In this document: piece after piece, positions 6,774 through 49,432 of the stretch | Layout: each line of letters begins with the position of its first letter | Numbering within the stretch: the first letter of the stretch is position 1 | NCBI GenBank assembly: GCA_045802645.1 | Contig: JBJMQQ010000131.1 | Coordinates: 2,050-66,049 of the forward strand | Length of the DNA stretch: 64,000 bases | From: Polyangia bacterium | Lineage (GTDB): Bacteria > Myxococcota_A > Polyangia > Fen-1088 | Direction: 5' to 3' | Position numbers and translations under genes: made by a program | The notes under the pieces: generated by a model | Told to the model about the DNA's origin: nothing | What the model saw: the letters and a program-made list of their open reading frames with translations, nothing else | The model's database searches: none

Positions 6774-8102
6774 TTGATGCGCGGGGCGGAGGCGCAGGCG
6801 ATTGCAGACGGAACGCGCGAGCGGCAGCGCGTGCTGCTGCTGTGCGCGGGCGCGGTGCTGATCCTCGCGCCGACGGATCCGCTCTCGCTGGGCCGCTTTT
6901 CGTGGCGGCCCCTGGCGGTGCGCGTCGCGTGGTCGCTGTTCATCGCGATCACCGCGGTCAGCCTGCGCGGGGCGGACGCCAAGCGGACGCGCGACATGAT
7001 GCTGGCGCTGGCGGTGCTGTCGGCGGCGCTCTGCACGGCGCTGGCGGCGCTGACGGGCGGCACGGCCAGCTCGTTGTTCCAGGTGATGCTGGCGCTGCCG
7101 GTCGTGATCGCGCTGGTGATCCAGGACCAGCCCAGCGCCACCATCGCTGCCGGGATCACGCTGCTGGGCGGGGGAATGGGGATCCTGGTCGCGACCGGCG
7201 CCACCCTGATCGCGTGCTGGAACTGGACGGCGCAGGCCGTGGTCTTCACGTCGGTCGCCGCGTATGCGTCGGGCGTTTACGGGCGCCTACACGCGCGCGA
7301 GGCGGCGCTGCGACGGGCCACCGCCGAAGCCGCCGCCCGCGCCCGCGCCTCCGAGGCGGCCATCGCCGCGCGTGACGAGTTTCTGGCCATCGCCGCCCAC
7401 GAGCTGCGCACGCCGCTGACGTCGATGCTGCTGCAGATCGAGGCGGTCGAGCGCGGGCTGACGACCGGCAGCGGCCCCGTCAGCGAGCACATCGGCATCG
7501 TCGGCCTGGGGCGCCAGGCGCGGCGGCTCTCCGGGCTCATCGACGGCATGCTGGACGTCACCCGCCTGACTGCCGGCCGGTTGGAGCTGGTGTTCGAGAA
7601 GGTGGACCTGGCGACGCTGGTGCGCGACGCCGCGCAGCGCTTCACCGCCGACGCGACAGCCGCCAAGTGCACCGTGAAGCTCGACGTCCCGGAGCCGCTG
7701 ATCGGCACCTGGGACGAAGCGCGCCTGGACCAGATCGTGACGAACCTGGTGGGCAACGCCATCAAGTACGGGGCCGGCGGCGTCATCGAGATCGAGGGGC
7801 GCAGCGAAGGCGACAGCGTGCGGTTGACCGTCCGCGATCACGGGATCGGCATCTCCGCCACCGACCAGCAGCGCATCTTTCACCGCTTCGAGCGGGCCAG
7901 CGGCCAGCGCCAGCATCCGGGCCTGGGCCTGGGCCTGTGGATCACCAGCGAGCTGTGCAAGGCGCTGGGCGGGCGCATCACGGTCGCCAGCGCGCTGGGC
8001 GCGGGCGCGGCCTTCACCATCACGCTGCCGCGCGCCTCACCCCAGTCTCAGGCCGCCCCAAAGTCGCGGGTGCCAGCGGTCACCCCGTACGGCGGACGTT
8101 GA
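6774..8102 (+). CDS. membrane sensor histidine kinase
   Basis: N-terminal multi-TM region. H-box AAHELRTPLTS. HATPase strings NLVGNAIKYG, DHGIGI and GLGLGLWI. Confidence 0.85.
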   Translation: MMRGAEAQAIADGTRERQRVLLLCAGAVLILAPTDPLSLGRFSWRPLAVRVAWSLFIAITAVSLRGADAKRTRDMMLALAVLSAALCTALAALTGGTASSLFQVMLALPVVIALVIQDQPSATIAAGITLLGGGMGILVATGATLIACWNWTAQAVVFTSVAAYASGVYGRLHAREAALRRATAEAAARARASEAAIAARDEFLAIAAHELRTPLTSMLLQIEAVERGLTTGSGPVSEHIGIVGLGRQARRLSGLIDGMLDVTRLTAGRLELVFEKVDLATLVRDAAQRFTADATAAKCTVKLDVPEPLIGTWDEARLDQIVTNLVGNAIKYGAGGVIEIEGRSEGDSVRLTVRDHGIGISATDQQRIFHRFERASGQRQHPGLGLGLWITSELCKALGGRITVASALGAGAAFTITLPRASPQSQAAPKSRVPAVTPYGGR

Positions 8103-39918: not shown

Positions 39919-40989
39919 TCAGGGCAGGCAGTTGACGCGCTTGGTGTCGAGCACGATGTCGTCGTAGTAGACGTCGAACGCGTAGGTCGCCGGGTGCCAT
40001 ATGTAAAACCCGAACCCGAAGTCGCTGAACCCGCCGACCTGACCGCTGGTCTTGCCGCCCAGTGAGATGGGGGTGAAGGAGAAGTCCTCCTTGCCGTCGA
40101 CGAACACGCGGGCCAGGTCGGGCGTGTCGTTGAACTCCCACTCGAGGCAGATCCACTTCTTCACGGGCAGCGTTCCACCCATCGAGTAGGTCTCGGTCGT
40201 CCCTGACGTGGCCGCCGCGCTGGACGTGATGCCGGTTTGATCCACCGACGTGAGCTGCCAGCCGGACTCGTAGCTCGCCACCTCCAGCCGCTTGAACTTC
40301 GGAAACCCCGATGACCCGGCCCACAACAACGTCATGTGCTGCGCGGGGGGCATCGGCGTGATGTAGAAGTAGGCCCGCCCGAAGTGATGCCCGGCAAGGG
40401 CAGCCGGGGCGTTCTTGGTGATGATGAGGTCGTAGCTGAGGATGTTTGGAAGCGCATGGAATTGAGCCGCGTACGTCCCGTGGGCTGCCATCCCCTTCTG
40501 AACGACCACCGTCTGCCCGCCGAAGGTCTGGACGTTCCAGACCGCGGGATCCAGCTTGCCGCTCTCGAAGTCCTCGCAGAAGAGCCCTGCGCATGCGCCG
40601 GGCGGGGTGCCGCCGTCGGTCGGTGAGCCTCCCGCCCCTGGCGGCGCGCCGCCGCGGCCGCCGGACGCGCCCTGCCCTGCGGCGCCCCCCGTCCCGCGCG
40701 TTCCAGCTGCGCCGGTGCCGCCGCTCGCCGCGCCTCCAGTCGCCGTCGCGCCGGTTCCGATGACGCCGCCCGTTCCACCGGCGCCGCCAGCGATCCCGCC
40801 CCCTCCGCTACCGCCGCTTTGGGTCGCCCCCCCGCTACCCGACGATGCCGGCTGACCTCCCGCGCCGCCGGTTCCAGGGCCGGGGGGCCCGCCGCCCGAC
40901 GACGCGCAAGCCGCGCCTGCCACAGAAACCGCGAACAGGACGGCCATGCGAACACGCGCGCGGGGCCGGGGCTTCTGCTGCTGGATCAT
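39919..40989 (-). CDS. secreted concanavalin A-like jelly-roll protein with Gly-rich tether
   Basis: ATG at 40989 (MIQQQKPRPRARVRMAVLFAVSVAGAAC). A 110-aa Gly-rich region is followed by CAGLFCEDFESGKLDPAVWNV... and a C-terminal FDVYYDDIVLD, typical of lectin/glucanase-fold domains. Confidence 0.5.
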   Translation of the reverse strand: MIQQQKPRPRARVRMAVLFAVSVAGAACASSGGGPPGPGTGGAGGQPASSGSGGATQSGGSGGGGIAGGAGGTGGVIGTGATATGGAASGGTGAAGTRGTGGAAGQGASGGRGGAPPGAGGSPTDGGTPPGACAGLFCEDFESGKLDPAVWNVQTFGGQTVVVQKGMAAHGTYAAQFHALPNILSYDLIITKNAPAALAGHHFGRAYFYITPMPPAQHMTLLWAGSSGFPKFKRLEVASYESGWQLTSVDQTGITSSAAATSGTTETYSMGGTLPVKKWICLEWEFNDTPDLARVFVDGKEDFSFTPISLGGKTSGQVGGFSDFGFGFYIWHPATYAFDVYYDDIVLDTKRVNCLP

Positions 40990-41028
40990 GGAGCGTATAG
41001 GGGGGCAAGCACGGCAAGTGCTGCCCAC

Positions 41029-42660
41029 TCACACGCCCGCCTGCTGATTGTCGGCCGCAAGCGCCGGAAACTGCGCGAAGAACCGCCGCAGGTGCTCCTT
41101 GCGCGGCTCCGGCAGGTAATCGAAGTTCGCGCCGCGGTCGACGACCTCCCAGAAATCCTTGGCGGTGACGGCCAGCATCTCGTCGCGAATGGACCGCAGA
41201 CGTTCGGGCGATTCGCCGGCCATGTCGTCGAAGATGGCCTGCGCCCGCGCCGACTCGCCCATCGACAGGTAGTACGAAGCCAGCTTGGCCTGCGCCTTGC
41301 GGACCCCGCGCAGCGCGCGCTCTTCGTCGGGCGTCTCGGGCGCGTCGTCGATCTGCAGGAAGATCTGCAGCAGCCGGTCCTGGCAGTCGGACTGGTAGAC
41401 GCTGGCGACCTCGCACAGCGCGCACAGGTCGTAGGCGGCGGTCTCCGTCACGAACCCCATACCGTTACCGTGCGCCAGTCGGGCGTAGTACTTGAAGTGA
41501 CCCGCAACCTCGACCAGCGTCGTGCTGGACCAGCGGTCGGCGTCTTCGGGCGCCGCCAGCAGCGCTTCGGCCAGCTGCCGGTACTGGTTGAGAACGTTGT
41601 AGGCGGTCCGCACGTCGCGCGCATTCAGCGCCGCGCGCAGATAGGTGTTCATGAACTTCACGGTCATCACGAACACGTCGCGGTTACCCGCCGACAACGC
41701 CGCCTCGCCGACGTAGCGCGTGTCGATCGTGACGACGTGCGCCATCTCGGGCAGGCTGGACAGCGCCGCGCCGAACACCTCGCGCACCTGCCGCAGCCCT
41801 TTCCATTCCAGCCAGGTGCGGTTCCGTGCCAGCTCTTCCAGCGAGTCGTCGGCCAGCGCGACGAAGTCGGGATCGGCCTGCAGCGGCGCGCCGATCGCGA
41901 ACCATTCTGGCTGCAGCGTCTCCTTCCTGGTCTGGTAATCGACCAGCAGGCGGCGCAGCGCGGCCGACGCGTCGGAGGCGATCACCTTGTCCTTCTGCCC
42001 CATCGCGTTCACGGCGATGTCCGCGAGGTGAGCCAGGCCGCTGACCGCCTGCGACTGCCGGTCGCTGAACGTGCGCCGGCGGGCACCCGCGTCGGTCGAG
42101 GTCGCGCGATCCAGCGTCTGCTGGCCGATTCGCGCGATCACCTTCTCGGGGTCCAGGAAGTCGAACACGTAGGCGAAGTACGGGACCAGCAGCAGCAGGC
42201 TGGCCGAAGACATGACCACGGTCAGCGTCACCGTCGCCTGGGGGACGTAGTCGTTGCGGACCACGAAGCTGACCCACACGGACTCGACGCACGCGACGAC
42301 GAAGAAGCCCATCACGCCGATGTTGATCCGGTCGCGGAAGAACAGGTCCGCCACGCGCGGCGTATAGCGGGTCGCCGCCAGCTGCACGACGATCGACACG
42401 ACGGTGATGGCGATGCCCAGCACCGACGCAATGACCTGCGACAGACTGCCCAGCGCGTTCTGCATCGTCTGCGCGTCGTAGTCGAACAGCTGCCCGACCG
42501 GGCCTTCCTTGCGGTGCGCGGCGCCTGCGTCGACGAGGAAGTAGTCGATGAGCCAGAACGCCGCGAACAGCGCCACCGCGAAGACGGTCAGTGCGCCCAG
42601 GATCGCCAGCGAACGGTGTCGGCCCACCGGACGCGCGACCGGAGCGGCCTGGGGCGGCAT
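41029..42660 (-). CDS. membrane protein with large cytoplasmic domain (DUF2254-like by recollection)
   Basis: ATG at 42660 (MPPQAAPVARPVGRHRSLAILGALTVFAVALFAAFW). Four N-terminal helices are followed by an about 350-aa soluble alpha-helical region. Confidence 0.5.
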   Translation of the reverse strand: MPPQAAPVARPVGRHRSLAILGALTVFAVALFAAFWLIDYFLVDAGAAHRKEGPVGQLFDYDAQTMQNALGSLSQVIASVLGIAITVVSIVVQLAATRYTPRVADLFFRDRINIGVMGFFVVACVESVWVSFVVRNDYVPQATVTLTVVMSSASLLLLVPYFAYVFDFLDPEKVIARIGQQTLDRATSTDAGARRRTFSDRQSQAVSGLAHLADIAVNAMGQKDKVIASDASAALRRLLVDYQTRKETLQPEWFAIGAPLQADPDFVALADDSLEELARNRTWLEWKGLRQVREVFGAALSSLPEMAHVVTIDTRYVGEAALSAGNRDVFVMTVKFMNTYLRAALNARDVRTAYNVLNQYRQLAEALLAAPEDADRWSSTTLVEVAGHFKYYARLAHGNGMGFVTETAAYDLCALCEVASVYQSDCQDRLLQIFLQIDDAPETPDEERALRGVRKAQAKLASYYLSMGESARAQAIFDDMAGESPERLRSIRDEMLAVTAKDFWEVVDRGANFDYLPEPRKEHLRRFFAQFPALAADNQQAGV

Positions 42661-42684
42661 GGAGGCGCATGTTACCCTAGAGGG

Positions 42685-43488
42685 ATGCCTCCCAACGAGG
42701 CCGAGCTCCTTCTGGCCGTCGACGTCGGCAACACGAACGTGTCGCTGGGCCTGTACGCGCTGCCGCGCGGGGCTCGCCGCGTCTTGCGCGCCGACTGGCG
42801 GCTCGAGACGCGCGCCGCGCGCACCGCCGACGAGTACGCGGCGCTGCTGGCCGAGCTGTTCCGTCGCGCCGGATTCGACCTGGACGACGTCAACGCGGTC
42901 GCGATCTCGTCGGTGGTTCCCCCGGCGCTGGCGCCGCTGGAGCGCCTGTGCCAGAAGCACCTGAAGGTCGAGCCGTTGATCGTCGGCCCCGGCATGAAGA
43001 CCGGCGTCCCGGTCCTGTATGAAAACCCGCGTGAGGTTGGCGCCGATCGAATCGTGAACGCGGTCGCCGCTTACGCGCGTTGGCCCCAGGGCGCCATCGT
43101 GGTCGACTTCGGCACCGCGACGACGTTCGACGTCGTCACCGCGCGCGGCGAGTACGCGGGCGGGGTCATCGCGCCCGGGCTCACCGTGTCGGCGGACGCG
43201 CTTTACTCCGCGACCGCCAAGTTGCCGCGCGTCGAGATCGCGCGCCCAGCCACCGCCATCGGGCGCAACACCGTGGCCAGCATGCAGGCGGGCCTGGTGT
43301 TCGGGTACGCCGGGCTGGTGGACGCGATCGTCGACCGCATCCGGGCCGAGATCGACTTCGCCCCGCGCATCGTGGGGACCGGCGGTCTGGCCAGGCTGAT
43401 CGCGGGCGAGAGCCGCACGATTGAAGAGTGTGACGACATGCTGACGCTGGAAGGCCTGGCCATTCTGTACGAGCGCAACGCGCGATGA
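42685..43488 (+). CDS. coaX: type III pantothenate kinase
   Basis: LLLAVDVGNTNVSLGLY, ENPREVGADRIVNAVAA, AIVVDFGTATTFDVV and IVGTGGLA are CoaX hallmarks. Confidence 0.9.
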   Translation: MPPNEAELLLAVDVGNTNVSLGLYALPRGARRVLRADWRLETRAARTADEYAALLAELFRRAGFDLDDVNAVAISSVVPPALAPLERLCQKHLKVEPLIVGPGMKTGVPVLYENPREVGADRIVNAVAAYARWPQGAIVVDFGTATTFDVVTARGEYAGGVIAPGLTVSADALYSATAKLPRVEIARPATAIGRNTVASMQAGLVFGYAGLVDAIVDRIRAEIDFAPRIVGTGGLARLIAGESRTIEECDDMLTLEGLAILYERNAR

Positions 43489-44567
43489 GCACCCCGCACA
43501 CGCAGACAGTCCGCGGGTTCCCGGCCCGCGTCGGGCAGATCCTGGTCGCGCCGCGCGACGCGCTGGCACGCATCGACGTGACCGGCGGCGGGCTGCGCGA
43601 CGCGATCCTGCTGGTGGTGCTGGGGGTCATCACGGTCCGGCTGCCCGAGCTGCTGCGCGCCATCCTGATGGTCGCCGGGCCGGCCACCGGCGCGCTGATG
43701 CGCGTCGCCGGCTTGATGATCGACGAGGTTCGGCAGGGGGCGTGGGTCGTGTTGCCCGCCGCCATCATCGTCACGGCGACGGCCGGCGCGCGCCGCGATT
43801 CCACCCGCGACCTGGACCTGGGCGCCGCCTGCTACGCGCCCTACTTCGCGGTGCATGCGCTGGCCCGGCTCATCGACGCCATCGCCGGCATGCAGGTCGT
43901 CTCGGACAAGATCGTGCAATCGGTGGGCGCGATCGCGGCCGCCTTCGTGCTGGTTCCCGCCGTCCGCCTCGCGCGCAGCCGGCCCGCAGCCGACGCCCCG
44001 CCCGCGCCGGAGACGCGGCCCATACCCGCCGGTGCGGCCCGGCGGGCGGGAGCGGGCGTTTTGGCCCTGGCCTGCGCGGCGATGATCGCGAACGTGGTCT
44101 GGTCGGCGCGCCACTTCGACGCGCTCTTGCCGATTCGACAGGGCGAGGCCGCCCCCGCGTTCGCGCTGCCGCGAATCGACAGCCCCGCCGAGAACCTGAC
44201 GCTGGAGTCGTTCCACGGGCAGGTGGTGGTGCTCGACTTCTGGGCGACCTGGTGCTCGCCGTGCGTCGCCATGCTGCCCGTCATGGACGCGGTGCACGCC
44301 ACCTGGGCGCCCCGCGGCGTCGGGTTCGTGGGCGTGAACTCGGACGGAGGCGGCGCGACCCCGGCCGAAATTCGGGCGTTCATGTCGGCCCACCACATCC
44401 CGTACCCGGTGGTGGTCGACGACGGCCGCGTCGGCGAGCTCTACAAAGTCGAGGCCCTCCCGACGCTGGTCGTGATCGGCCGCGACGGTCACATCCACAC
44501 CAGCTTCGTCGGGTTCACCTCGCAGCGAACGCTGGAAAAGGCCATCGGCGAGGCCGAAGGCGGGTAG
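43485..44567 (+). CDS. membrane-fused TlpA/ResA-type thiol:disulfide oxidoreductase (N-terminal Yip1-like multi-pass domain + thioredoxin domain)
   Basis: The ATG overlaps the coaX stop (ATGA). About 190 aa of hydrophobic helices are followed by GQVVVLDFWATWCSPCVAMLP (WCxxC) and ...YKVEALPTLVVIGRDG. Confidence 0.8.
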   Translation: MSTPHTQTVRGFPARVGQILVAPRDALARIDVTGGGLRDAILLVVLGVITVRLPELLRAILMVAGPATGALMRVAGLMIDEVRQGAWVVLPAAIIVTATAGARRDSTRDLDLGAACYAPYFAVHALARLIDAIAGMQVVSDKIVQSVGAIAAAFVLVPAVRLARSRPAADAPPAPETRPIPAGAARRAGAGVLALACAAMIANVVWSARHFDALLPIRQGEAAPAFALPRIDSPAENLTLESFHGQVVVLDFWATWCSPCVAMLPVMDAVHATWAPRGVGFVGVNSDGGGATPAEIRAFMSAHHIPYPVVVDDGRVGELYKVEALPTLVVIGRDGHIHTSFVGFTSQRTLEKAIGEAEGG

Positions 44568-44600
44568 AACGCCGGTTAGAACGCCGGTTAGCACGCGGTT
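44565..44600 (+). promoter_or_regulatory. three tandem 12-bp direct repeats (TAGAACGCCGGT x2, TAGCACGCGGTT) upstream of the first Cys-rich lipoprotein gene
   Basis: Read directly from the sequence. The first repeat starts on the TlpA stop codon. The third repeat overlaps a sigma54-like TAGCACG-N4-TTGCA (44589-44604). Confidence 0.4.
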
Positions 44601-44618
44601 TGCAGCCCCACAGGGACG

Positions 44619-45245
44619 ATGACGAACCTCCTCGGCACGTCGAGCGTATGTTTGGCGTTCGTCATCGCCGGCTGCACCGCCAACCTGACCAGCCGCGATG
44701 CCAGCCCGGACACGCAGCCCGTCGTGACGGCCGCCGGCGGCTGCTCCGGGACGGCAAAGCTCGGCGGCACCAACGTTCCTGCGGAGCACCGCGCGACGGC
44801 CGCCGCATGCGCGCCCTCGCGAAATCCGTTCGCAGACGGCGGGTTTGCGTCCTGCAGCTCGAACGCCGATTGTGCCTCTGACGGCAGCGCGGCGGCGTTC
44901 TCGACGTGCCTTCATGGCTCCTGCACGTTCGACCACTGCCTGACCGACGCCGATTGCGGCTCCAAACAGGTCTGCGCCTGTTCGTCGGACTACTACGGCG
45001 GCAACGCCGCGTTCCATGGGAACGTGTGCGTGCCTGGAAACTGTCACGTCGACGGCGACTGCGGCGCGGGCGGGTACTGCTCGCCGAGCCGCGGCTACTG
45101 CGGCGCGTTCCAGGGCTTTTACTGCCACACGTCGAAGGACACCTGTCTCGACGGGGCGAAGGACTGCGGAACGTGCGGGAACGCGTGCGTGTACGCACCG
45201 ACCACCGGTGCCTTCATGTGCGCATCGGTGATCTGCGCCGGATGA
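44619..45245 (+). CDS. 22-Cys lipoprotein, paralogue 1
   Basis: Lipobox AFVIAGC. Conserved VPAEHR, CSSNADC, CLHGSC, CLTDADC, NCHVDGDCGAGGYCS, DTC, APTTGAFMC. Confidence 0.7.
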   Translation: MTNLLGTSSVCLAFVIAGCTANLTSRDASPDTQPVVTAAGGCSGTAKLGGTNVPAEHRATAAACAPSRNPFADGGFASCSSNADCASDGSAAAFSTCLHGSCTFDHCLTDADCGSKQVCACSSDYYGGNAAFHGNVCVPGNCHVDGDCGAGGYCSPSRGYCGAFQGFYCHTSKDTCLDGAKDCGTCGNACVYAPTTGAFMCASVICAG

Positions 45246-45264
45246 ACGGGATCGGGCTGTCACG

Positions 45265-46578
45265 GTGCCTCAGAAATTCGAGATCCTCCGCCTCGTCGTT
45301 GGGCGGATCGCCTTCTTTGGGCTGCTCCTCGGCGCCTGCCACCGCTCGGCGAACACGACGGCGTACCTGACCGGCGGCCCCGCGGCGCGGCAGGCGCTGG
45401 AGGCGTCGGTCGTCAACCCGGGGAACGCCTACTCCACGCTGCGCCTCTCGCGCTATCAGACGGGAGATCCCGGCGACTGGGCCCGCCTGCCGGCGTTCAA
45501 CCCGCCGACTGAGCCGATCGCGGCAAGCGAGCTGGACCAGCCCGCCGGTGCGTCTCCGACCGCGCTGTCCGCGGCGGCCGCGCCGCTGGCGCTGCCCGCC
45601 GAGGGCACCTCCCTGGACGACGACGCGCTGGTGGCGCTGGGGCGGCAGGCATTCGCGCGCTATCCGACCCAGGTGGCCGCCTACATGCGTGTGGCGCTGA
45701 TCTCGCGGTCGGCCGCCGCACGGTACGGGCTGTGGGTCGATCAGGCGGGCGGCGTCGGGGGATTGGTGCGGGCGCGCATGCCTGACGGATCGGTCTGGCT
45801 GTCGGTGACCTGCGCGACGTGCCACACCGCCCGTGGTGGCGACGGCAGCCTGGTGGACGGCTTGCCGAACGCGGCGCTGGACGTGGGGCGGGCCCTCCTG
45901 GAGTCGCAAGGCATCGCGCCCGGGATGTCCGCGGATCCGCGGGCAGCGTGGGGACCCGGGCGGCTGGACGTATCGACGACCGCCGGGACCGAGCCCGCCC
46001 GTATCCCCGACCTGCGCCCCGTGCGCTGGCTGACCCACCTGCACCAGGACGCCACGCTGCGCGGCTCCGATCCGGTCACGCTGGCGATCCGCCTGGAGAC
46101 GCTGATCATCACCGCCAACAGCCAGACGATCCGGCCACCCCGGATCGTGACGCTGGCCCTGGCGGCCTACGTGCGGTCGCTGGGGGACAGACTACCGGCG
46201 CCTGACGCGGCGGCCGCGGCGTCGCCAGCCGGTGCGGCGGTTTTCGGCGCGTCGTGCGCGGACTGCCACGCCGCACCCGGATTCACGGGCGCGCCGGTGG
46301 CGCTTGGCGCGATCGGGACGGACCCGACGCTGGGACGCTCGGCTGACCGCGGGACAGGCACGTATCGGGTCCCGTCGCTGCGCGGGGTAGGCACGCGGGG
46401 GCCGCTGCTTCACGACGGCACGATCCCGTCATTGTCCGCGCTGTTCGACCCCGCGCGCCTCTCACCCGCGTTCGGGGGTCGCCTGCACGGGACCGGTCCC
46501 GTTCGCGGCCACACGTACGGTCTCGCGCTGCCGGATGCAGATCGGCAAGCGCTGGTCAGTTACTTGCAACAGCTGTGA
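45265..46578 (+). CDS. di-haem cytochrome c peroxidase/MauG-superfamily lipoprotein
   Basis: Lipobox LLLGAC. Two CxxCH sites (CATCH, CADCH). C-terminal YRVPSLRGVGTRGPLLHDGTIPSL resembles the CCP/MauG (F/Y)xVPSLRNV...HDG motif. Confidence 0.7.
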   Translation: MPQKFEILRLVVGRIAFFGLLLGACHRSANTTAYLTGGPAARQALEASVVNPGNAYSTLRLSRYQTGDPGDWARLPAFNPPTEPIAASELDQPAGASPTALSAAAAPLALPAEGTSLDDDALVALGRQAFARYPTQVAAYMRVALISRSAAARYGLWVDQAGGVGGLVRARMPDGSVWLSVTCATCHTARGGDGSLVDGLPNAALDVGRALLESQGIAPGMSADPRAAWGPGRLDVSTTAGTEPARIPDLRPVRWLTHLHQDATLRGSDPVTLAIRLETLIITANSQTIRPPRIVTLALAAYVRSLGDRLPAPDAAAAASPAGAAVFGASCADCHAAPGFTGAPVALGAIGTDPTLGRSADRGTGTYRVPSLRGVGTRGPLLHDGTIPSLSALFDPARLSPAFGGRLHGTGPVRGHTYGLALPDADRQALVSYLQQL

Positions 46579-46593
46579 CGGGAGAAAAACGCG

Positions 46594-47322
46594 ATGAGCT
46601 TGACCAAACTTTCATACTTCGTGCTGCCCCTCGCGGGCGTTGCGATCGTGGCGGCCGGTTGCAGCAGCACGAGCCTGACGGCTCCCAGGCACGACTCGGG
46701 CGCGGACGTGACGGTCACGGCACAGCACGACTCGGGGCCCGACACCGCGCCTGTCGTTCGGAACGACGCTTCCGACGCGCGCACGACGCCGGCTGACTCG
46801 AGCACCGACACGCCCCCAGCGGGATACTGTCTCTATCATGCGCCGACACCGTCCGAGGTGCCGAAGGCGCACCGCGCCGAGGCCGTGCCTTGTGCCTCGC
46901 GCCCGAACACGTCGCCCGTCGACGGAATCAGCTGCACGTCGAACGCTGACTGCGCCACGGATGCCGGCTACGGGTCGGTGATGCGCCGCTGCTTTCACGG
47001 CCACTGTAGCCTGGACGGCTGTCTGACCGACGCCGACTGCCCCGACATGGAAGTTTGTGACTGTGCGCAAACGGTTTCCGAGTCAGTCTTTGTCGCGAAC
47101 ATCTGCAGGCCGGCCAACTGTCACGTCGACAGCGATTGCGGGCCCGGCCGATTCTGTTCGGGGAACAGCATCAACTCGTGCGGAGGCCGTGACGGGTACT
47201 ATTGCCAGGGGCCGAACGACACATGTGTGAACCGGGAAGACTGCGCCTGCGGCATGACGTGCCGGTACGACCCGACGGTGGCCGCGTTCAGGTGCTTGGC
47301 CGTCAGCGTTTGCGGCGGGTGA
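46594..47322 (+). CDS. 22-Cys lipoprotein, paralogue 2
   Basis: RBS gggaga. Lipobox IVAAGC. A Ser/Asp/Thr-rich tether is followed by the same Cys framework (VPKAHR, CTSNADC, CFHGHC, CLTDADC, NCHVDSDCGPGRFCS, DTC, DPTVAAFRC). Confidence 0.7.
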   Translation: MSLTKLSYFVLPLAGVAIVAAGCSSTSLTAPRHDSGADVTVTAQHDSGPDTAPVVRNDASDARTTPADSSTDTPPAGYCLYHAPTPSEVPKAHRAEAVPCASRPNTSPVDGISCTSNADCATDAGYGSVMRRCFHGHCSLDGCLTDADCPDMEVCDCAQTVSESVFVANICRPANCHVDSDCGPGRFCSGNSINSCGGRDGYYCQGPNDTCVNREDCACGMTCRYDPTVAAFRCLAVSVCGG

Positions 47323-47359
47323 GCCGCGCAGCGACCGGATTGACCAGAGGCAAACGCCT

Positions 47360-48085
47360 ATGAAGCTGTCCAAGATTGCATTCCTGGGGCTCGCGATCGT
47401 CGGGGCCGCGGTCCTGAGCGCCGGCTGCAGCAGTACGGCCCTGTCGCCCGCCAAGCACGACTCGGGCACCGACGTGCCGGTCGTGTCGGTGCCCGACTCG
47501 GGCCGCGACACGGCGATGACGGTTCCTCACGACGCGTCCGACGCGCAGACGACGTCGACGGACTCGGGGACGGATACGCACGGGTCGGGAGGCTGCTCCG
47601 GGCATGCGCCGGCGCCGTCAGAGGTCCCGCCGTCTCACCGCCCGACCGCGGTCGCGTGCGCGCCCACGCCATACACTCCGCCCGACGGTGGCGTGTCCTG
47701 TACCTCCGACGCGGATTGCCCCGGGATCGTTCTTCGCGGAGGGCGGATCTGTCTGCACGGCCAGTGCTCGCTGGATCGGTGCCTGACGGACGCGGATTGC
47801 AGCCCCAGCGAAGCTTGCAACTGCAGCGGCGGCCCGCTGGCAATCGGCTTCCGCGTCAACGCGTGCGTCCCGGCGAGTTGCCACGTCGACCCCGACTGCG
47901 GTCCGAACGGCTACTGTTCGCTCGACGGCGACGAGGGGACCTGCGGTACAGCCGGGTATTTCTGTCACGGTCCGAACGACACCTGCGTCGATGCGACCAA
48001 GGACTGCGCCTGCGGCCAGACTTGCCGTTACATGCCGACGACGGGGGCATTCGCATGCGCGCCCCCCGGCTTTTGCGCCGGGTGA
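47360..48085 (+). CDS. 22-Cys lipoprotein, paralogue 3
   Basis: Lipobox VLSAGC. Same framework (VPPSHR, CTSDADC, CLHGQC, CLTDADC, SCHVDPDCGPNGYCS, DTC, MPTTGAFAC). It is a tandem duplicate of paralogue 2. Confidence 0.7.
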   Translation: MKLSKIAFLGLAIVGAAVLSAGCSSTALSPAKHDSGTDVPVVSVPDSGRDTAMTVPHDASDAQTTSTDSGTDTHGSGGCSGHAPAPSEVPPSHRPTAVACAPTPYTPPDGGVSCTSDADCPGIVLRGGRICLHGQCSLDRCLTDADCSPSEACNCSGGPLAIGFRVNACVPASCHVDPDCGPNGYCSLDGDEGTCGTAGYFCHGPNDTCVDATKDCACGQTCRYMPTTGAFACAPPGFCAG

Positions 48086-48110
48086 ACGACGAGAGCTACC
48101 CGGCCGCCGT

Positions 48111-48320
48111 TCAATCTTCCGGGCGGCCGGCTTTTTCTTCGGTGAAGTAGGCGCTGCGGTGGCGGGCGTTGGGCAGGTGACTGTCCCAGCAGCTCGCCGA
48201 ACAGAAGACCAGCCGGACCCGGCCGGAGTTACAGGTGCTGACCGAGCACTTGATGAGCTTGCCGCCGACGGCGATGGGCTTGCGGCACATGGAGCAGACG
48301 AAGGTCGGAGCCGGAGACAT
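48111..48320 (-). CDS. small Cys-rich zinc-finger-like protein (69 aa)
   Basis: CSMC-x12-CSVSTC-x8-FCSASCWDSH resembles a cross-brace MYND/HIT-type finger. Third-position GC is high. No clear Shine-Dalgarno sequence. Confidence 0.45.
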   Translation of the reverse strand: MSPAPTFVCSMCRKPIAVGGKLIKCSVSTCNSGRVRLVFCSASCWDSHLPNARHRSAYFTEEKAGRPED

Positions 48321-48373: not shown

Positions 48374-49432
48374 ATGCGCCTAGCCGGGTACGTCGCGGCC
48401 GAGTTGACCATCGCCGCGACTTTGCTCGCGGGCGGGGTGACAGGTGCGGCGTTCGGCATCCGGCACCTCCGACATGTCCTGGCGCCCCACGCGATCACCC
48501 CGGCCGGCCCGCTGGCGGCTCGCGACGACCTGTCGGAGCTGGGCGACCTGCGCGTCTCGCTGGAGTCGTCCGGGACCTTTCTCGGCATGTCGGACGAGCT
48601 GCTGCTGGAACGCGTCCGCACCCAGCCCATCAAGCGGTTCAAGCTGAATCACGGCGGTTCGTCGATCTCCTTCCGCATCGACTTCGCCGACGGGTCGCGG
48701 GCCGCCTGGAAGCCGCAGCAGACGAACAGCCAGACCGTCCCCCGCAAAGAGGTCGCCGCGTATCGCCTGAACCGGCTGCTGGGCCTCAACGCGGTGCCGC
48801 CGGCGGCGGCCCGGGCGGTCTCGCGTGAGGAGCTGTTCACACACCTGCACCCCGACAGCGTGGAGTTCGTCCCGCGCATCCAGGACGAGGTGATCTTCGG
48901 CCCCGACGGCAAGACGCTGGGGACCGCGTCCTACTGGATCCCGGTCATCAAGGACTGCGGGTTCGACAAGGGTGAAGGGCGACAGCAGATGCAGGCCTGG
49001 CTCACCCACGGCGAGACCATCCCGCCGGACCAGCTGTCGATGGCCCGGCAGGTTTCGGACCTGGTGGTGTTCGACTTCCTGACGTCGAATCCCGACCGCT
49101 ACTCGGGCGGCAACATGAAGATGTCGCCGGACGGCAGCGAGCTCTTCTACATGGACAACACCATGTCGTTCTTCCTGGACCCGCAGGGCAAAGAGAAGAT
49201 TCGCGACGTGCTTTTCCGGACCCAGCGCTTCTCGCGGTCCCTGGTCGACGCGCTGAACCGCATCACCGAGGCCACACTGCGTCGGGCGTTCGGGACCGAA
49301 GCCGGCGCCGGCCACGAGATTCTGACCCCGGCCGAGATTACGGCCGTCATTGCGCGCCGCGACGTCATCAAACGCCACATCGATGACCTGATTGCGAAGT
49401 ACGGCGCCCGGGACGTCCTGCTTTTTCCCTGA
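48374..49432 (+). CDS. membrane-anchored Fam20/FJX1-like secretory-pathway-type kinase homologue
   Basis: N-terminal anchor AAELTIAATLLAGGVTGAAFGI. WKPQQ...PRKEVAAYRLNRLLGLNAVPPAAARAV and VVFDFLTSNPDRYSGGN...LFYMDNT parallel the recalled Fam20C strings (FKPMRQ...[36 protein letters not shown]...HLDN). Confidence 0.6.
   Translation: MRLAGYVAAELTIAATLLAGGVTGAAFGIRHLRHVLAPHAITPAGPLAARDDLSELGDLRVSLESSGTFLGMSDELLLERVRTQPIKRFKLNHGGSSISFRIDFADGSRAAWKPQQTNSQTVPRKEVAAYRLNRLLGLNAVPPAAARAVSREELFTHLHPDSVEFVPRIQDEVIFGPDGKTLGTASYWIPVIKDCGFDKGEGRQQMQAWLTHGETIPPDQLSMARQVSDLVVFDFLTSNPDRYSGGNMKMSPDGSELFYMDNTMSFFLDPQGKEKIRDVLFRTQRFSRSLVDALNRITEATLRRAFGTEAGAGHEILTPAEITAVIARRDVIKRHIDDLIAKYGARDVLLFP

Follow-up and report, generated by a model that had tools for sequence, protein, structure and literature searches.

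Conserved pairing of a di-haem cytochrome lipoprotein with cysteine-rich lipoproteins in Polyangia: a possible enzyme-client system remote from MauG and the bacterial cytochrome c peroxidases

The di-haem enzymes of the bacterial cytochrome c peroxidase (bCCP) superfamily differ in the ligation of their second haem, which is of the His-Met type in the canonical bCCPs and of the His-Tyr type in the MauG-type enzymes (PMC11892367). Some members oxidise a dedicated protein that is encoded nearby, the precedents being MauG with preMADH and MbnH with MbnP (PMC11892367, PMC6405878), and enzymes of this kind are rare, mechanistically prized and actively sought (PMC6405878, PMC11892367). In BthA, the second haem is also of the His-Tyr type and there is no Trp between the haems (PMC6405878). 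Here, we analyse a locus in a 64,000-nucleotide stretch of DNA from a soil myxobacterium of the class Polyangia (contig JBJMQQ010000131.1), the whole of which is called the window below. At this locus, the gene of a lipoprotein with two CxxCH haem motifs lies among the genes of three cysteine-rich lipoproteins, called Cys1, Cys2 and Cys3. Comparison with other genomes shows that the conserved unit is a cassette of two genes, one for the di-haem protein and one for a Cys lipoprotein, which move together between unrelated genomic contexts.

The initial annotation of the window, made from the letters alone, had described three paralogous 22-Cys lipoproteins interleaved with the di-haem lipoprotein, and the open reading frames (ORFs), their coordinates on the + strand, the Cys counts and the motifs are all as it gave them (Table 1). 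It had also suggested that these proteins form a module outside the cytoplasm, and had named beforehand, as a check, the conservation of the neighbourhood in other genomes. This was assessed from both sides of the pair. A scan based on the di-haem protein, with one genome per GTDB species, gave 106 matches, of which 80 with identities of 35-82% were kept. All 80 loci are in metagenome-assembled genomes and, apart from two from Bradymonadales, they belong to Myxococcota (including Polyangiales, Kofleriaceae, Nannocystales, Sandaracinaceae and Labilithrix). When the six-frame ORFs of these loci were searched with a hidden Markov model (HMM) of the Cys domain, 57 of the 80 had a Cys-domain ORF as the immediate same-strand neighbour of the di-haem gene, with the di-haem identity falling to 35% in such partner-bearing loci. 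The partner adjoins the di-haem gene in one of the two Bradymonadales loci as well. Look-ups on long contigs that started from the Cys protein, down to 31% identity, covered ten homologues, all of which have an adjacent same-strand gene for a di-haem protein of about 400-460 residues.

The surroundings of the pair are quite different from one lineage to another. The whole block from coaX to RimO is syntenic in the close relatives L001, L002, L005 and L010. Elsewhere, the neighbours are PD40, LysR, pirin and GST genes (L006-L008), MutL, MiaA, HIT and GH6 (L009), MreC, PBP2, RodA and Rieske (L092), GGDEF and DUF4349 (L095), Ser/Thr kinase and Band_7 (L097), or proteasome and RNase E together with a 1,175-residue multi-haem protein (L096). 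The last of these is a predicted multi-haem cytochrome encoded directly downstream of the cassette in this distant genome (L096 6951-10478, +), with faint matches to Cytochrom_CIII, Cytochrome_C7 and Cytochrom_c3_2. All-against-all clustering of the flank ORFs revealed no third conserved gene, the next commonest family being present in 7 of 85 loci. In L006-L008, L010 and L095-L097, the two genes of the pair overlap, by the stop codon of the Cys gene and the start of the di-haem gene. The partner lies mostly upstream in distant lineages, and downstream or on both sides in the clade of the window, with one or two copies per scanned locus. Since the two genes stay adjacent across the class Polyangia, and in one Bradymonadales locus, while all the genes around them change, the proposal of a functionally linked module of di-haem protein and Cys lipoproteins outside the cytoplasm is supported. 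The sizes of the two families at 90% identity are also similar, with at least 643 di-haem clusters and, by profile searches, 1,550 Cys-domain clusters, which fits one to three partners per enzyme.

In 6 of the 23 loci that were negative for the partner, the relevant flank is cut by the end of the contig. Two other negative loci have a different Cys-rich lipoprotein encoded immediately downstream of the di-haem homologue, with 247 residues and 33 Cys in one (L037 7318-8058, +) and about 170 residues and about 24 Cys in the other (L051 ~7330-7850, +). These two cases suggest that the Cys-rich clients of the di-haem family may be of more kinds than one. In two Kofleriaceae loci (L054 4350-5891, + and L067 714-2168, +), a protein of about 490-510 residues with a CQQCH or CEQCH haem motif is encoded upstream of the di-haem homologue, and it may be an alternative partner.

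We now consider the Cys-rich lipoproteins. In each of the three copies in the window, the lipobox (IAGC or AGC) is followed by a tether of low complexity and then by a C-terminal domain of ~160 residues, and exactly 22 Cys come after the lipobox Cys. The pairwise identities are 44-54%, and a MAFFT alignment places 21 of the 22 Cys in identical columns, with the last one shifted by one column. The motifs VPxxHR, C(S/T)S(N/D)ADC, CLTDADC, NCHVDxDCG, DTC and a C-terminal C-x-G are found in the copies. The family HMM matches Cys1, Cys2 and Cys3 with E = 3e-66, 3e-54 and 7e-57, respectively, so their kinship is far above chance. Cys1 occupies the position upstream of the di-haem gene, which is the arrangement retained in the most distant genomes, and its orthologues P0012 and P0016 are likewise located upstream. 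A haem site in the Cys domain was considered and rejected, as the domain has no CxxCH and the CxxxxCH of the window copies is CxxxxCR in most relatives.

The family is large: when representatives at 50% identity were scanned exhaustively with HMMER, 692 clusters matched at E <= 1e-30 and 1,923 at E <= 1e-10. All of the top 150 are 164-402 residues long and have the domain at the C-terminal end, with no fusion to other domains or to the di-haem protein among them. Of 142 proteins, 139 have the domain at the extreme C-terminus. In one short JGI contig (P0020, 3.6 kb), the last ~70 residues of a di-haem homologue are joined to a Cys-rich protein, and the junction looks like a frameshift or read-through rather than a genuine fusion. 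Across 139 members, 18 Cys and the residues P14, H17, D101, D103 and D131 (domain numbering) are invariant. In a larger set of 281 members, PxxHR is present in 266, a Cys at position -3 in 239 and a Gly at position -1 in 234, and the terminal C-x4-C spacing is fixed in 241. Among 199 members with a recognisable lipobox, the mature protein has 20 Cys in 73 cases, 22 in 84 and 21 in 22. An AlphaFold2 model of the Cys3 domain, built of short beta-hairpins, has a pLDDT of 86.4 and a pTM of 0.80, with the final five residues at a pLDDT of 62. The mostly even Cys counts and the confident model fit a disulfide-locked protein that folds outside the cytoplasm. A comparison of this model with the folds in the PDB gave no significant match, the best one having E = 2 (Cys-rich ladders of the CD40/R-spondin kind).

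Whether the Cys domain belongs to a named family can be answered in part. The initial annotation had not recognised one, and this holds for the Pfam search, in which no named family was found. Its loose comparison with Dickkopf is not borne out: Dickkopf_N (PF04706) has no match to the window copies and matches weakly in 8 of 139 relatives (best E 0.0019). On the other hand, the NCBIfam model TIGR04201 (Myxo_Cys_RPT) matches 47 of the 139 members at E <= 0.01, with a best E of 6e-10; of the window copies, Cys1 reaches 13.4 bits (E = 0.064) against a cut-off of 25 bits, and Cys2 and Cys3 have no match. This Cys-rich repeat was first defined in Myxococcus TraA, where it is presumed to be extracellular and to contain disulfide bonds (PMC3325183). 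The two kinds of protein share units of ~22 residues of the CxxDxDCxxGxxC type, and both are exported myxobacterial proteins presumed to be disulfide-bonded. The Cys family differs in that about four fixed, degenerate repeats form a single conserved terminal domain with PxxHR and C-x-G-COOH, and in that its members are lipid-anchored at the N-terminus, have neither a PA14 domain nor a MYXO-CTERM tag, and are paired with a di-haem gene. Judged from these matches, the most fitting description of the domain is a fixed set of ~4 degenerate TraA-type repeats, assembled at the terminus, with two signatures of its own, PxxHR and C-x-G. The sequence type thus appears to have a precedent, while the domain family as such is without a name.

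Turning to the di-haem protein, it has the lipobox LLGAC, CATCH at residue 183, CADCH at residue 331 and the segment YRVPSLRGVGTRGPLLHDG at 367-385, and it has no Cys other than that of the lipobox and the four that bind haem. The two CxxCH motifs (C183xxC186H187 and C331xxC334H335) are 148 residues apart in one polypeptide, as expected for a member of the superfamily (~145-170), and they are kept in all of the 78-80 family sequences that cover these columns. The C-terminal motif (F/Y)xxP(S/T)LR ... P(Y/L)xHDG is also present and aligns to BthA and to E. coli Ccp; within it, Y367 and P370 are each conserved in 77 of 78 family sequences and H383 in 72 of 78, and D384 is nearly invariant. Between the haem motifs, W229 (78/78) is part of an A-W-G-P-G-R motif that resembles the W-D-G-R motif of bCCPs. 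D249, R398 and H416 are also conserved in all family sequences covering those columns. H408 was tried as a marker of the presence of the partner and discarded, since many partner-bearing homologues lack this residue or the whole insertion in which it is located. The top 120 homologues are at least 59% identical to the window protein, and their precomputed Pfam entries are generic cytochrome c models only, plus RoxA-like_Cyt-c in some.

The initial annotation had called this protein MauG/CCP-like. The kinship to the bCCP/MauG superfamily stands, but it is a remote one, and the scores are below the cut-offs of all the specific models: 14.3 bits against 25.6 for Pfam CCP_MauG (PF03150), 23.9 against 443.85 for the MauG model TIGR03791, 16.8 against 362.85 for the MbnH model TIGR04039, and 43.2 against 150 for NF040606 CytoC_perox, the best NCBIfam match. 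A short RoxA-like match was also obtained. The family profile, when run against the PDB sequences, matches BthA with E = 3e-4 over the C-terminal 75 residues only, and hhalign gives 84.5% probability for E. coli Ccp over the second haem domain only. An AlphaFold2 model, built without haem, has a pLDDT of 86.7 and a pTM of 0.87, and in a Foldseek search with it the bCCPs 3o5c and 1iqc rank highest (E ~2e-3, probability 1.0), followed by BthA in third place and RoxA in fourth. Taken together, the sequence comparisons point to a separate and remote branch of the bCCP/MauG/RoxA superfamily. The published CCP_MauG similarity network was built from the members of PF03150 (PMC6405878), and because the di-haem family scores below the cut-off of that model, it falls outside the network.

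The ligand of the second haem deserves special attention. According to the alignments to BthA and E. coli Ccp, the ligand position is 17 residues past the Pro of the P-x-x-HDG motif, which corresponds to residue 397. This position is occupied in 76 of 86 sequences, with a gap in the other 10, and the residue is Ala, Gly or Ser in 57 of the 76 (Ala 40, Gly 9, Ser 8) and Arg in 4; the 15 residues left are unlisted, so that any Met or Tyr among the 19 outside Ala, Gly and Ser is uncounted. The commonest residues at 397 are Ala, Gly, Ser and Arg, with Met not among the top five, and at 398 they are Arg (75), Gln (1) and Pro (1). Consequently, neither the His-Tyr ligation of the MauG-type enzymes (MauG, MbnH, BthA) nor the His-Met ligation of canonical bCCPs is supported here, the Met of Ccp (in its KLM segment) being aligned at ~397-399. 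In this lineage, a 13-residue insertion follows the ligand position. We infer that H416, the sole universally conserved downstream candidate, might serve as the sixth ligand. Membership of the MauG type is thus not supported by the alignments, and the analogy with MauG and MbnH drawn in the initial annotation does not hold at the level of the enzyme.

It is instructive to compare the pair with the described systems one at a time. As in the biogenesis of the tryptophan tryptophylquinone cofactor (TTQ) by MauG and preMADH in Paracoccus denitrificans, a di-haem cytochrome of the bCCP superfamily is encoded beside a small, disulfide-rich exported protein, which in the case of preMADH is the protein acted on. 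MauG itself shares with the window protein the two CxxCH and the PSLR...HDG-type motif, and its inter-haem Trp has a candidate counterpart in W229; in contrast to MauG, the window protein has an extra N-terminal region of ~150 residues and a lipid anchor, and mostly Ala, Gly or Ser in place of the Tyr ligand, while the Cys partner is without a conserved Trp and there are no mau genes. MbnH and MbnP, which are associated with kynurenine installation and copper binding, resemble the cassette in that two genes, for a di-haem enzyme and its dedicated partner protein, form a pair that can be found alone in genomes. However, the Cys partner is unrelated to MbnP, has 20-22 Cys, and is not associated with a TonB-type transporter. 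BthA of Burkholderia (PDB 6e1c, 6v59) is the best PDB match by sequence, and its physiological activity is also cryptic; unlike BthA, the window family has an invariant Trp, the candidate inter-haem residue, and mostly Ala, Gly or Ser rather than Tyr at the ligand position, and BthA in turn has no Cys-rich partner. Of the canonical bCCPs, the N. europaea (1iqc) and S. oneidensis (3o5c) enzymes are the top Foldseek matches and E. coli Ccp aligns over the second haem domain, but the window protein has no Met at the aligned position, has the 13-residue insertion after it, and has a first haem domain that is unalignable by sequence. What is known, then, is the logic of a di-haem enzyme of this superfamily with an adjacent dedicated partner; what is new is the branch of the enzyme, its predicted ligand set and the family of the partner. 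No description of this pairing of a di-haem protein with Cys lipoproteins was found in the body of literature that was searched.

On this basis, we propose that the two lipoproteins may be an enzyme and its dedicated protein substrate, client or redox partner outside the cytoplasm, a reading that we hold to be evenly poised between right and wrong. The di-haem protein and the Cys-rich protein would form a specific complex on a membrane surface in the cell envelope. The first, peroxidatic haem would use H2O2 or O2, and the oxidising equivalents would pass via the second haem to the Cys-rich protein as dedicated substrate or redox partner, following the logic of MauG-preMADH and MbnH-MbnP. As the Tyr ligand is missing, the chemistry is probably not of the bis-Fe(IV) kind found in MauG. 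On the partner, the elements that are targeted or contacted could be the invariant PxxHR His and the Asp residues conserved in the CxxDxDC motifs. The cassette has grown to three partner genes in the lineage of the window, and the membrane-anchored TlpA-like thioredoxin encoded upstream may aid the folding of the proteins with 11 disulfides. The model of a substrate or client is favoured by the presence of several partner genes per enzyme gene and by the MauG and MbnH precedents. Any chemical modification of the Cys protein by the di-haem enzyme is purely conjectural at this stage.

A bolder form of the proposal is that the di-haem protein founds a third functional type of bCCP, with a second haem that is neither His-Met nor His-Tyr, and that it installs a previously undescribed post-translational modification (a cross-link or an oxidised residue, at the His of PxxHR or at a Cys) in disulfide-rich surface lipoproteins. 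We judge this unlikely; if true, the pair would be a new system for the enzymatic maturation of a specific protein, with a lipoprotein family that is widespread in Polyangia.

Several observations weigh against an enzyme-substrate relationship. There are 17 loci with intact flanks in which the Cys-domain HMM detects no 22-Cys partner, so that the enzyme may not depend strictly on the partner, or the partner may be encoded elsewhere in those genomes. The alignments of the 139 members show no invariant Trp or Tyr as a possible precursor of a cofactor of the quinone type. On the enzyme side, the first (N-terminal) haem domain cannot be aligned to bCCPs, either in the PDB profile search or by hhalign against E. 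coli Ccp, and the Foldseek TM-scores of the haem-free model are low (0.27-0.37). Finally, the predominance of Ala, Gly and Ser at residue 397 makes long-range protein oxidation of the MauG kind doubtful, since the Tyr ligand is missing and the Y294H variant of MauG and the Y463H variant of BthA no longer form bis-Fe(IV) (PMC6405878).

Given that the Tyr ligand is missing and that the partner has no invariant aromatic residue, both of which speak against MauG-like chemistry, there is room for a reading in which the di-haem protein is a conventional periplasmic peroxidase or electron-transfer cytochrome, and the Cys lipoprotein is either an unmodified subunit of it (a scaffold, a stalk or anchor, or a specificity or regulatory subunit) or its thiol/disulfide electron donor. 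The mostly even Cys counts suggest that all Cys are in structural disulfides, in the surface protein TraA the TIGR04201 repeats make up a disulfide-rich region with a structural role, and the tight operon coupling is typical of obligate subunits. However, canonical bCCPs require no such subunit, and the di-haem protein is without their His-Met second haem (PMC11892367). Furthermore, one to three divergent partner copies per enzyme gene are a pattern that is seen more often with substrates or clients than with a stoichiometric subunit, and each of the two proteins already has a lipid anchor of its own. This arrangement is therefore considered somewhat unlikely. A different role for the partner, in metal handling, comes to mind from its invariant residues, as the only ones besides Cys are the Pro, one His and three Asp listed above, of which the latter four would make a plausible metal site, and the CxxDxDC motifs resemble Ca-binding Cys-rich modules. 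The Cys domain could then bind Ca, Fe, Mn or Cu via these residues or via thiolates, and the di-haem protein would oxidise or reduce the metal, loosely as in the copper handling of MbnH and MbnP, which provides a precedent (PMC11892367). Yet, the Pfam and NCBIfam model searches link the Cys domain neither to MbnP nor to a metal-binding family, and the clustering of the flank ORFs finds no TonB receptor, transporter or metal regulator conserved nearby, which leaves metal handling quite improbable.

The extreme C-terminal location of the domain and its conserved end bring to mind a carrier protein. SoxAX loads thiosulfate onto the GGCGG-COOH arm of SoxY, and the -3 Cys of C-x-G-COOH could similarly hold a covalent substrate, loaded oxidatively by the c-type cytochrome. 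The frequencies of Cys at -3 and Gly at -1, as well as the lower model confidence of the last five residues, agree with such an arm. Even Cys counts dominate, however, and the fixed terminal C-x4-C suggests that the terminal Cys is disulfide-bonded rather than free; moreover, there is no signature of a His/Cys-ligated haem, and no sulfur-oxidation genes are found nearby by clustering of the flank ORFs. A SoxY-like function is accordingly very improbable. The last alternative, that the genes are adjacent by inherited synteny without any functional link, would agree with the block shared by the nearest relatives, but it is effectively refuted by the genomes in which the pair alone is retained and every flanking gene differs. 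Among these readings, an enzyme with a dedicated client or redox partner is the one that we prefer.

Whichever function applies, the di-haem family is uncharted, lying below the Pfam model behind the published superfamily network and having a different predicted set of haem ligands. The Cys-lipoprotein family has neither a Pfam model nor a structural relative, and the pairing provides the first genomic functional context for these 20-22-Cys lipoproteins, a large family from Polyangia of soil and fresh water whose sequence clusters number in the hundreds to thousands. As a candidate partner, the Cys domain is small and foldable, and its co-expression with the enzyme would allow a direct test.

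The layout of the locus is summarised in Table 1.

Table 1. Features of the locus in the window, with positions counted from its first nucleotide.
Feature	Position	Strand	Basis
coaX	~42682-43488	+	gene start by comparison with gene calls in L001 and L002
TlpA/ResA-like thioredoxin protein, 360 aa	43485-44567	+	ORF and Pfam
Cys1 lipoprotein, 208 aa, short tether, 22-Cys C-terminal domain ending CAG	44619-45245	+	ORF, alignment, HMM
Di-haem c-type cytochrome lipoprotein, 437 aa	45265-46578	+	ORF, motifs, models, fold search
Cys2 lipoprotein, 242 aa, long Asp/Ser/Thr-rich tether, 22-Cys C-terminal domain ending CGG	46594-47322	+	
Cys3 lipoprotein, 241 aa, tandem paralogue of Cys2, ending CAG	47360-48085	+	
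Terminator-like hairpin followed by a T-run	48106-48136	+	consensus scan; 21 nt past the Cys3 stop codon

The region has a G+C content of ~70%, and the genes are closely spaced, with gaps of 51 nt between the thioredoxin gene and Cys1, 19 nt between Cys1 and the di-haem gene, 15 nt between the di-haem gene and Cys2, and 37 nt between Cys2 and Cys3. Cys2 and Cys3 are identical to the NCBI proteins ACJ8F1_12075 and ACJ8F1_12080, respectively, which come from a metagenome-assembled genome. The hairpin is the probable end of the operon; the consensus scan that detected it gave 6 sites, compared to 3.1 expected in shuffles.

The upstream protein had been described as a thioredoxin (WCSPC) fused to a multi-pass membrane domain and translationally coupled to coaX. 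The WCSPC motif is confirmed, and the ATG of its gene overlaps the coaX stop codon as ATGA. It matches Pfam AhpC-TSA (70 bits, 1.7e-19) and Redoxin (68 bits, 9e-19), both above the cut-offs, and its thioredoxin-like domain is preceded by ~200 residues with several hydrophobic segments. It thereby has the TlpA/ResA character of a membrane-anchored thioredoxin fold with CxxC that faces out of the cytoplasm, although the ResA/TlpA equivalog models remain below their cut-offs (90 against 170 and 38.7 against 230). Its assignment to the system, on the other hand, has to be withdrawn. The TlpA-like protein, coaX, RimO and a 352-residue Fam20-like protein were all examined as possible parts of it. 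Of the 80 scanned genomes, only L012 and L013 have them together with the pair, as do the close relatives L002-L005 and L010. The thioredoxin is a lineage-specific neighbour and not a conserved component.

Some further observations concern the flanks. Very long overlapping stop-to-stop ORFs are present on both strands upstream (window 41029-43569, - and 40819-43488, +), as expected at 70% G+C; by the gene calls in L001 and L002, the real genes within 40819-43569 appear to be a DUF2254 membrane protein (-) and coaX. Further upstream, at 39919-41028 (-), there is a lipoprotein-like ORF of 369 residues rich in Gly, Ala and Ser, and a Laminin_G_3 protein is found at a comparable position in L002 and L004. 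Downstream of Cys3, a 69-residue ORF at 48111-48320 (-) has 7 Cys and 2 His in a zinc-ribbon-like pattern, CxxC...CxxxxC...CxxxC, and a counterpart at the same position and strand has 69 residues in L001, L002, L003, L004 and L010 and 74 residues in L005. The next gene on the + strand begins 288 nt beyond Cys3. The 352-residue protein mentioned above (48374-49432, +) has an N-terminal signal anchor, would be located outside the cytoplasm, and shows remote homology to three animal kinases of the secretory pathway, Fam20C, Fam20A and Fam20B, with matches to Fam20C in the PDB sequence search (5yh3, E = 1.7e-4), to Pfam Fam20C (E = 0.003) and to TIGR03843 of the SCO1664 family (4.7e-8). It is syntenic with the cassette in close relatives only, and it adjoins lipoproteins with Ser/Asp-rich tethers.

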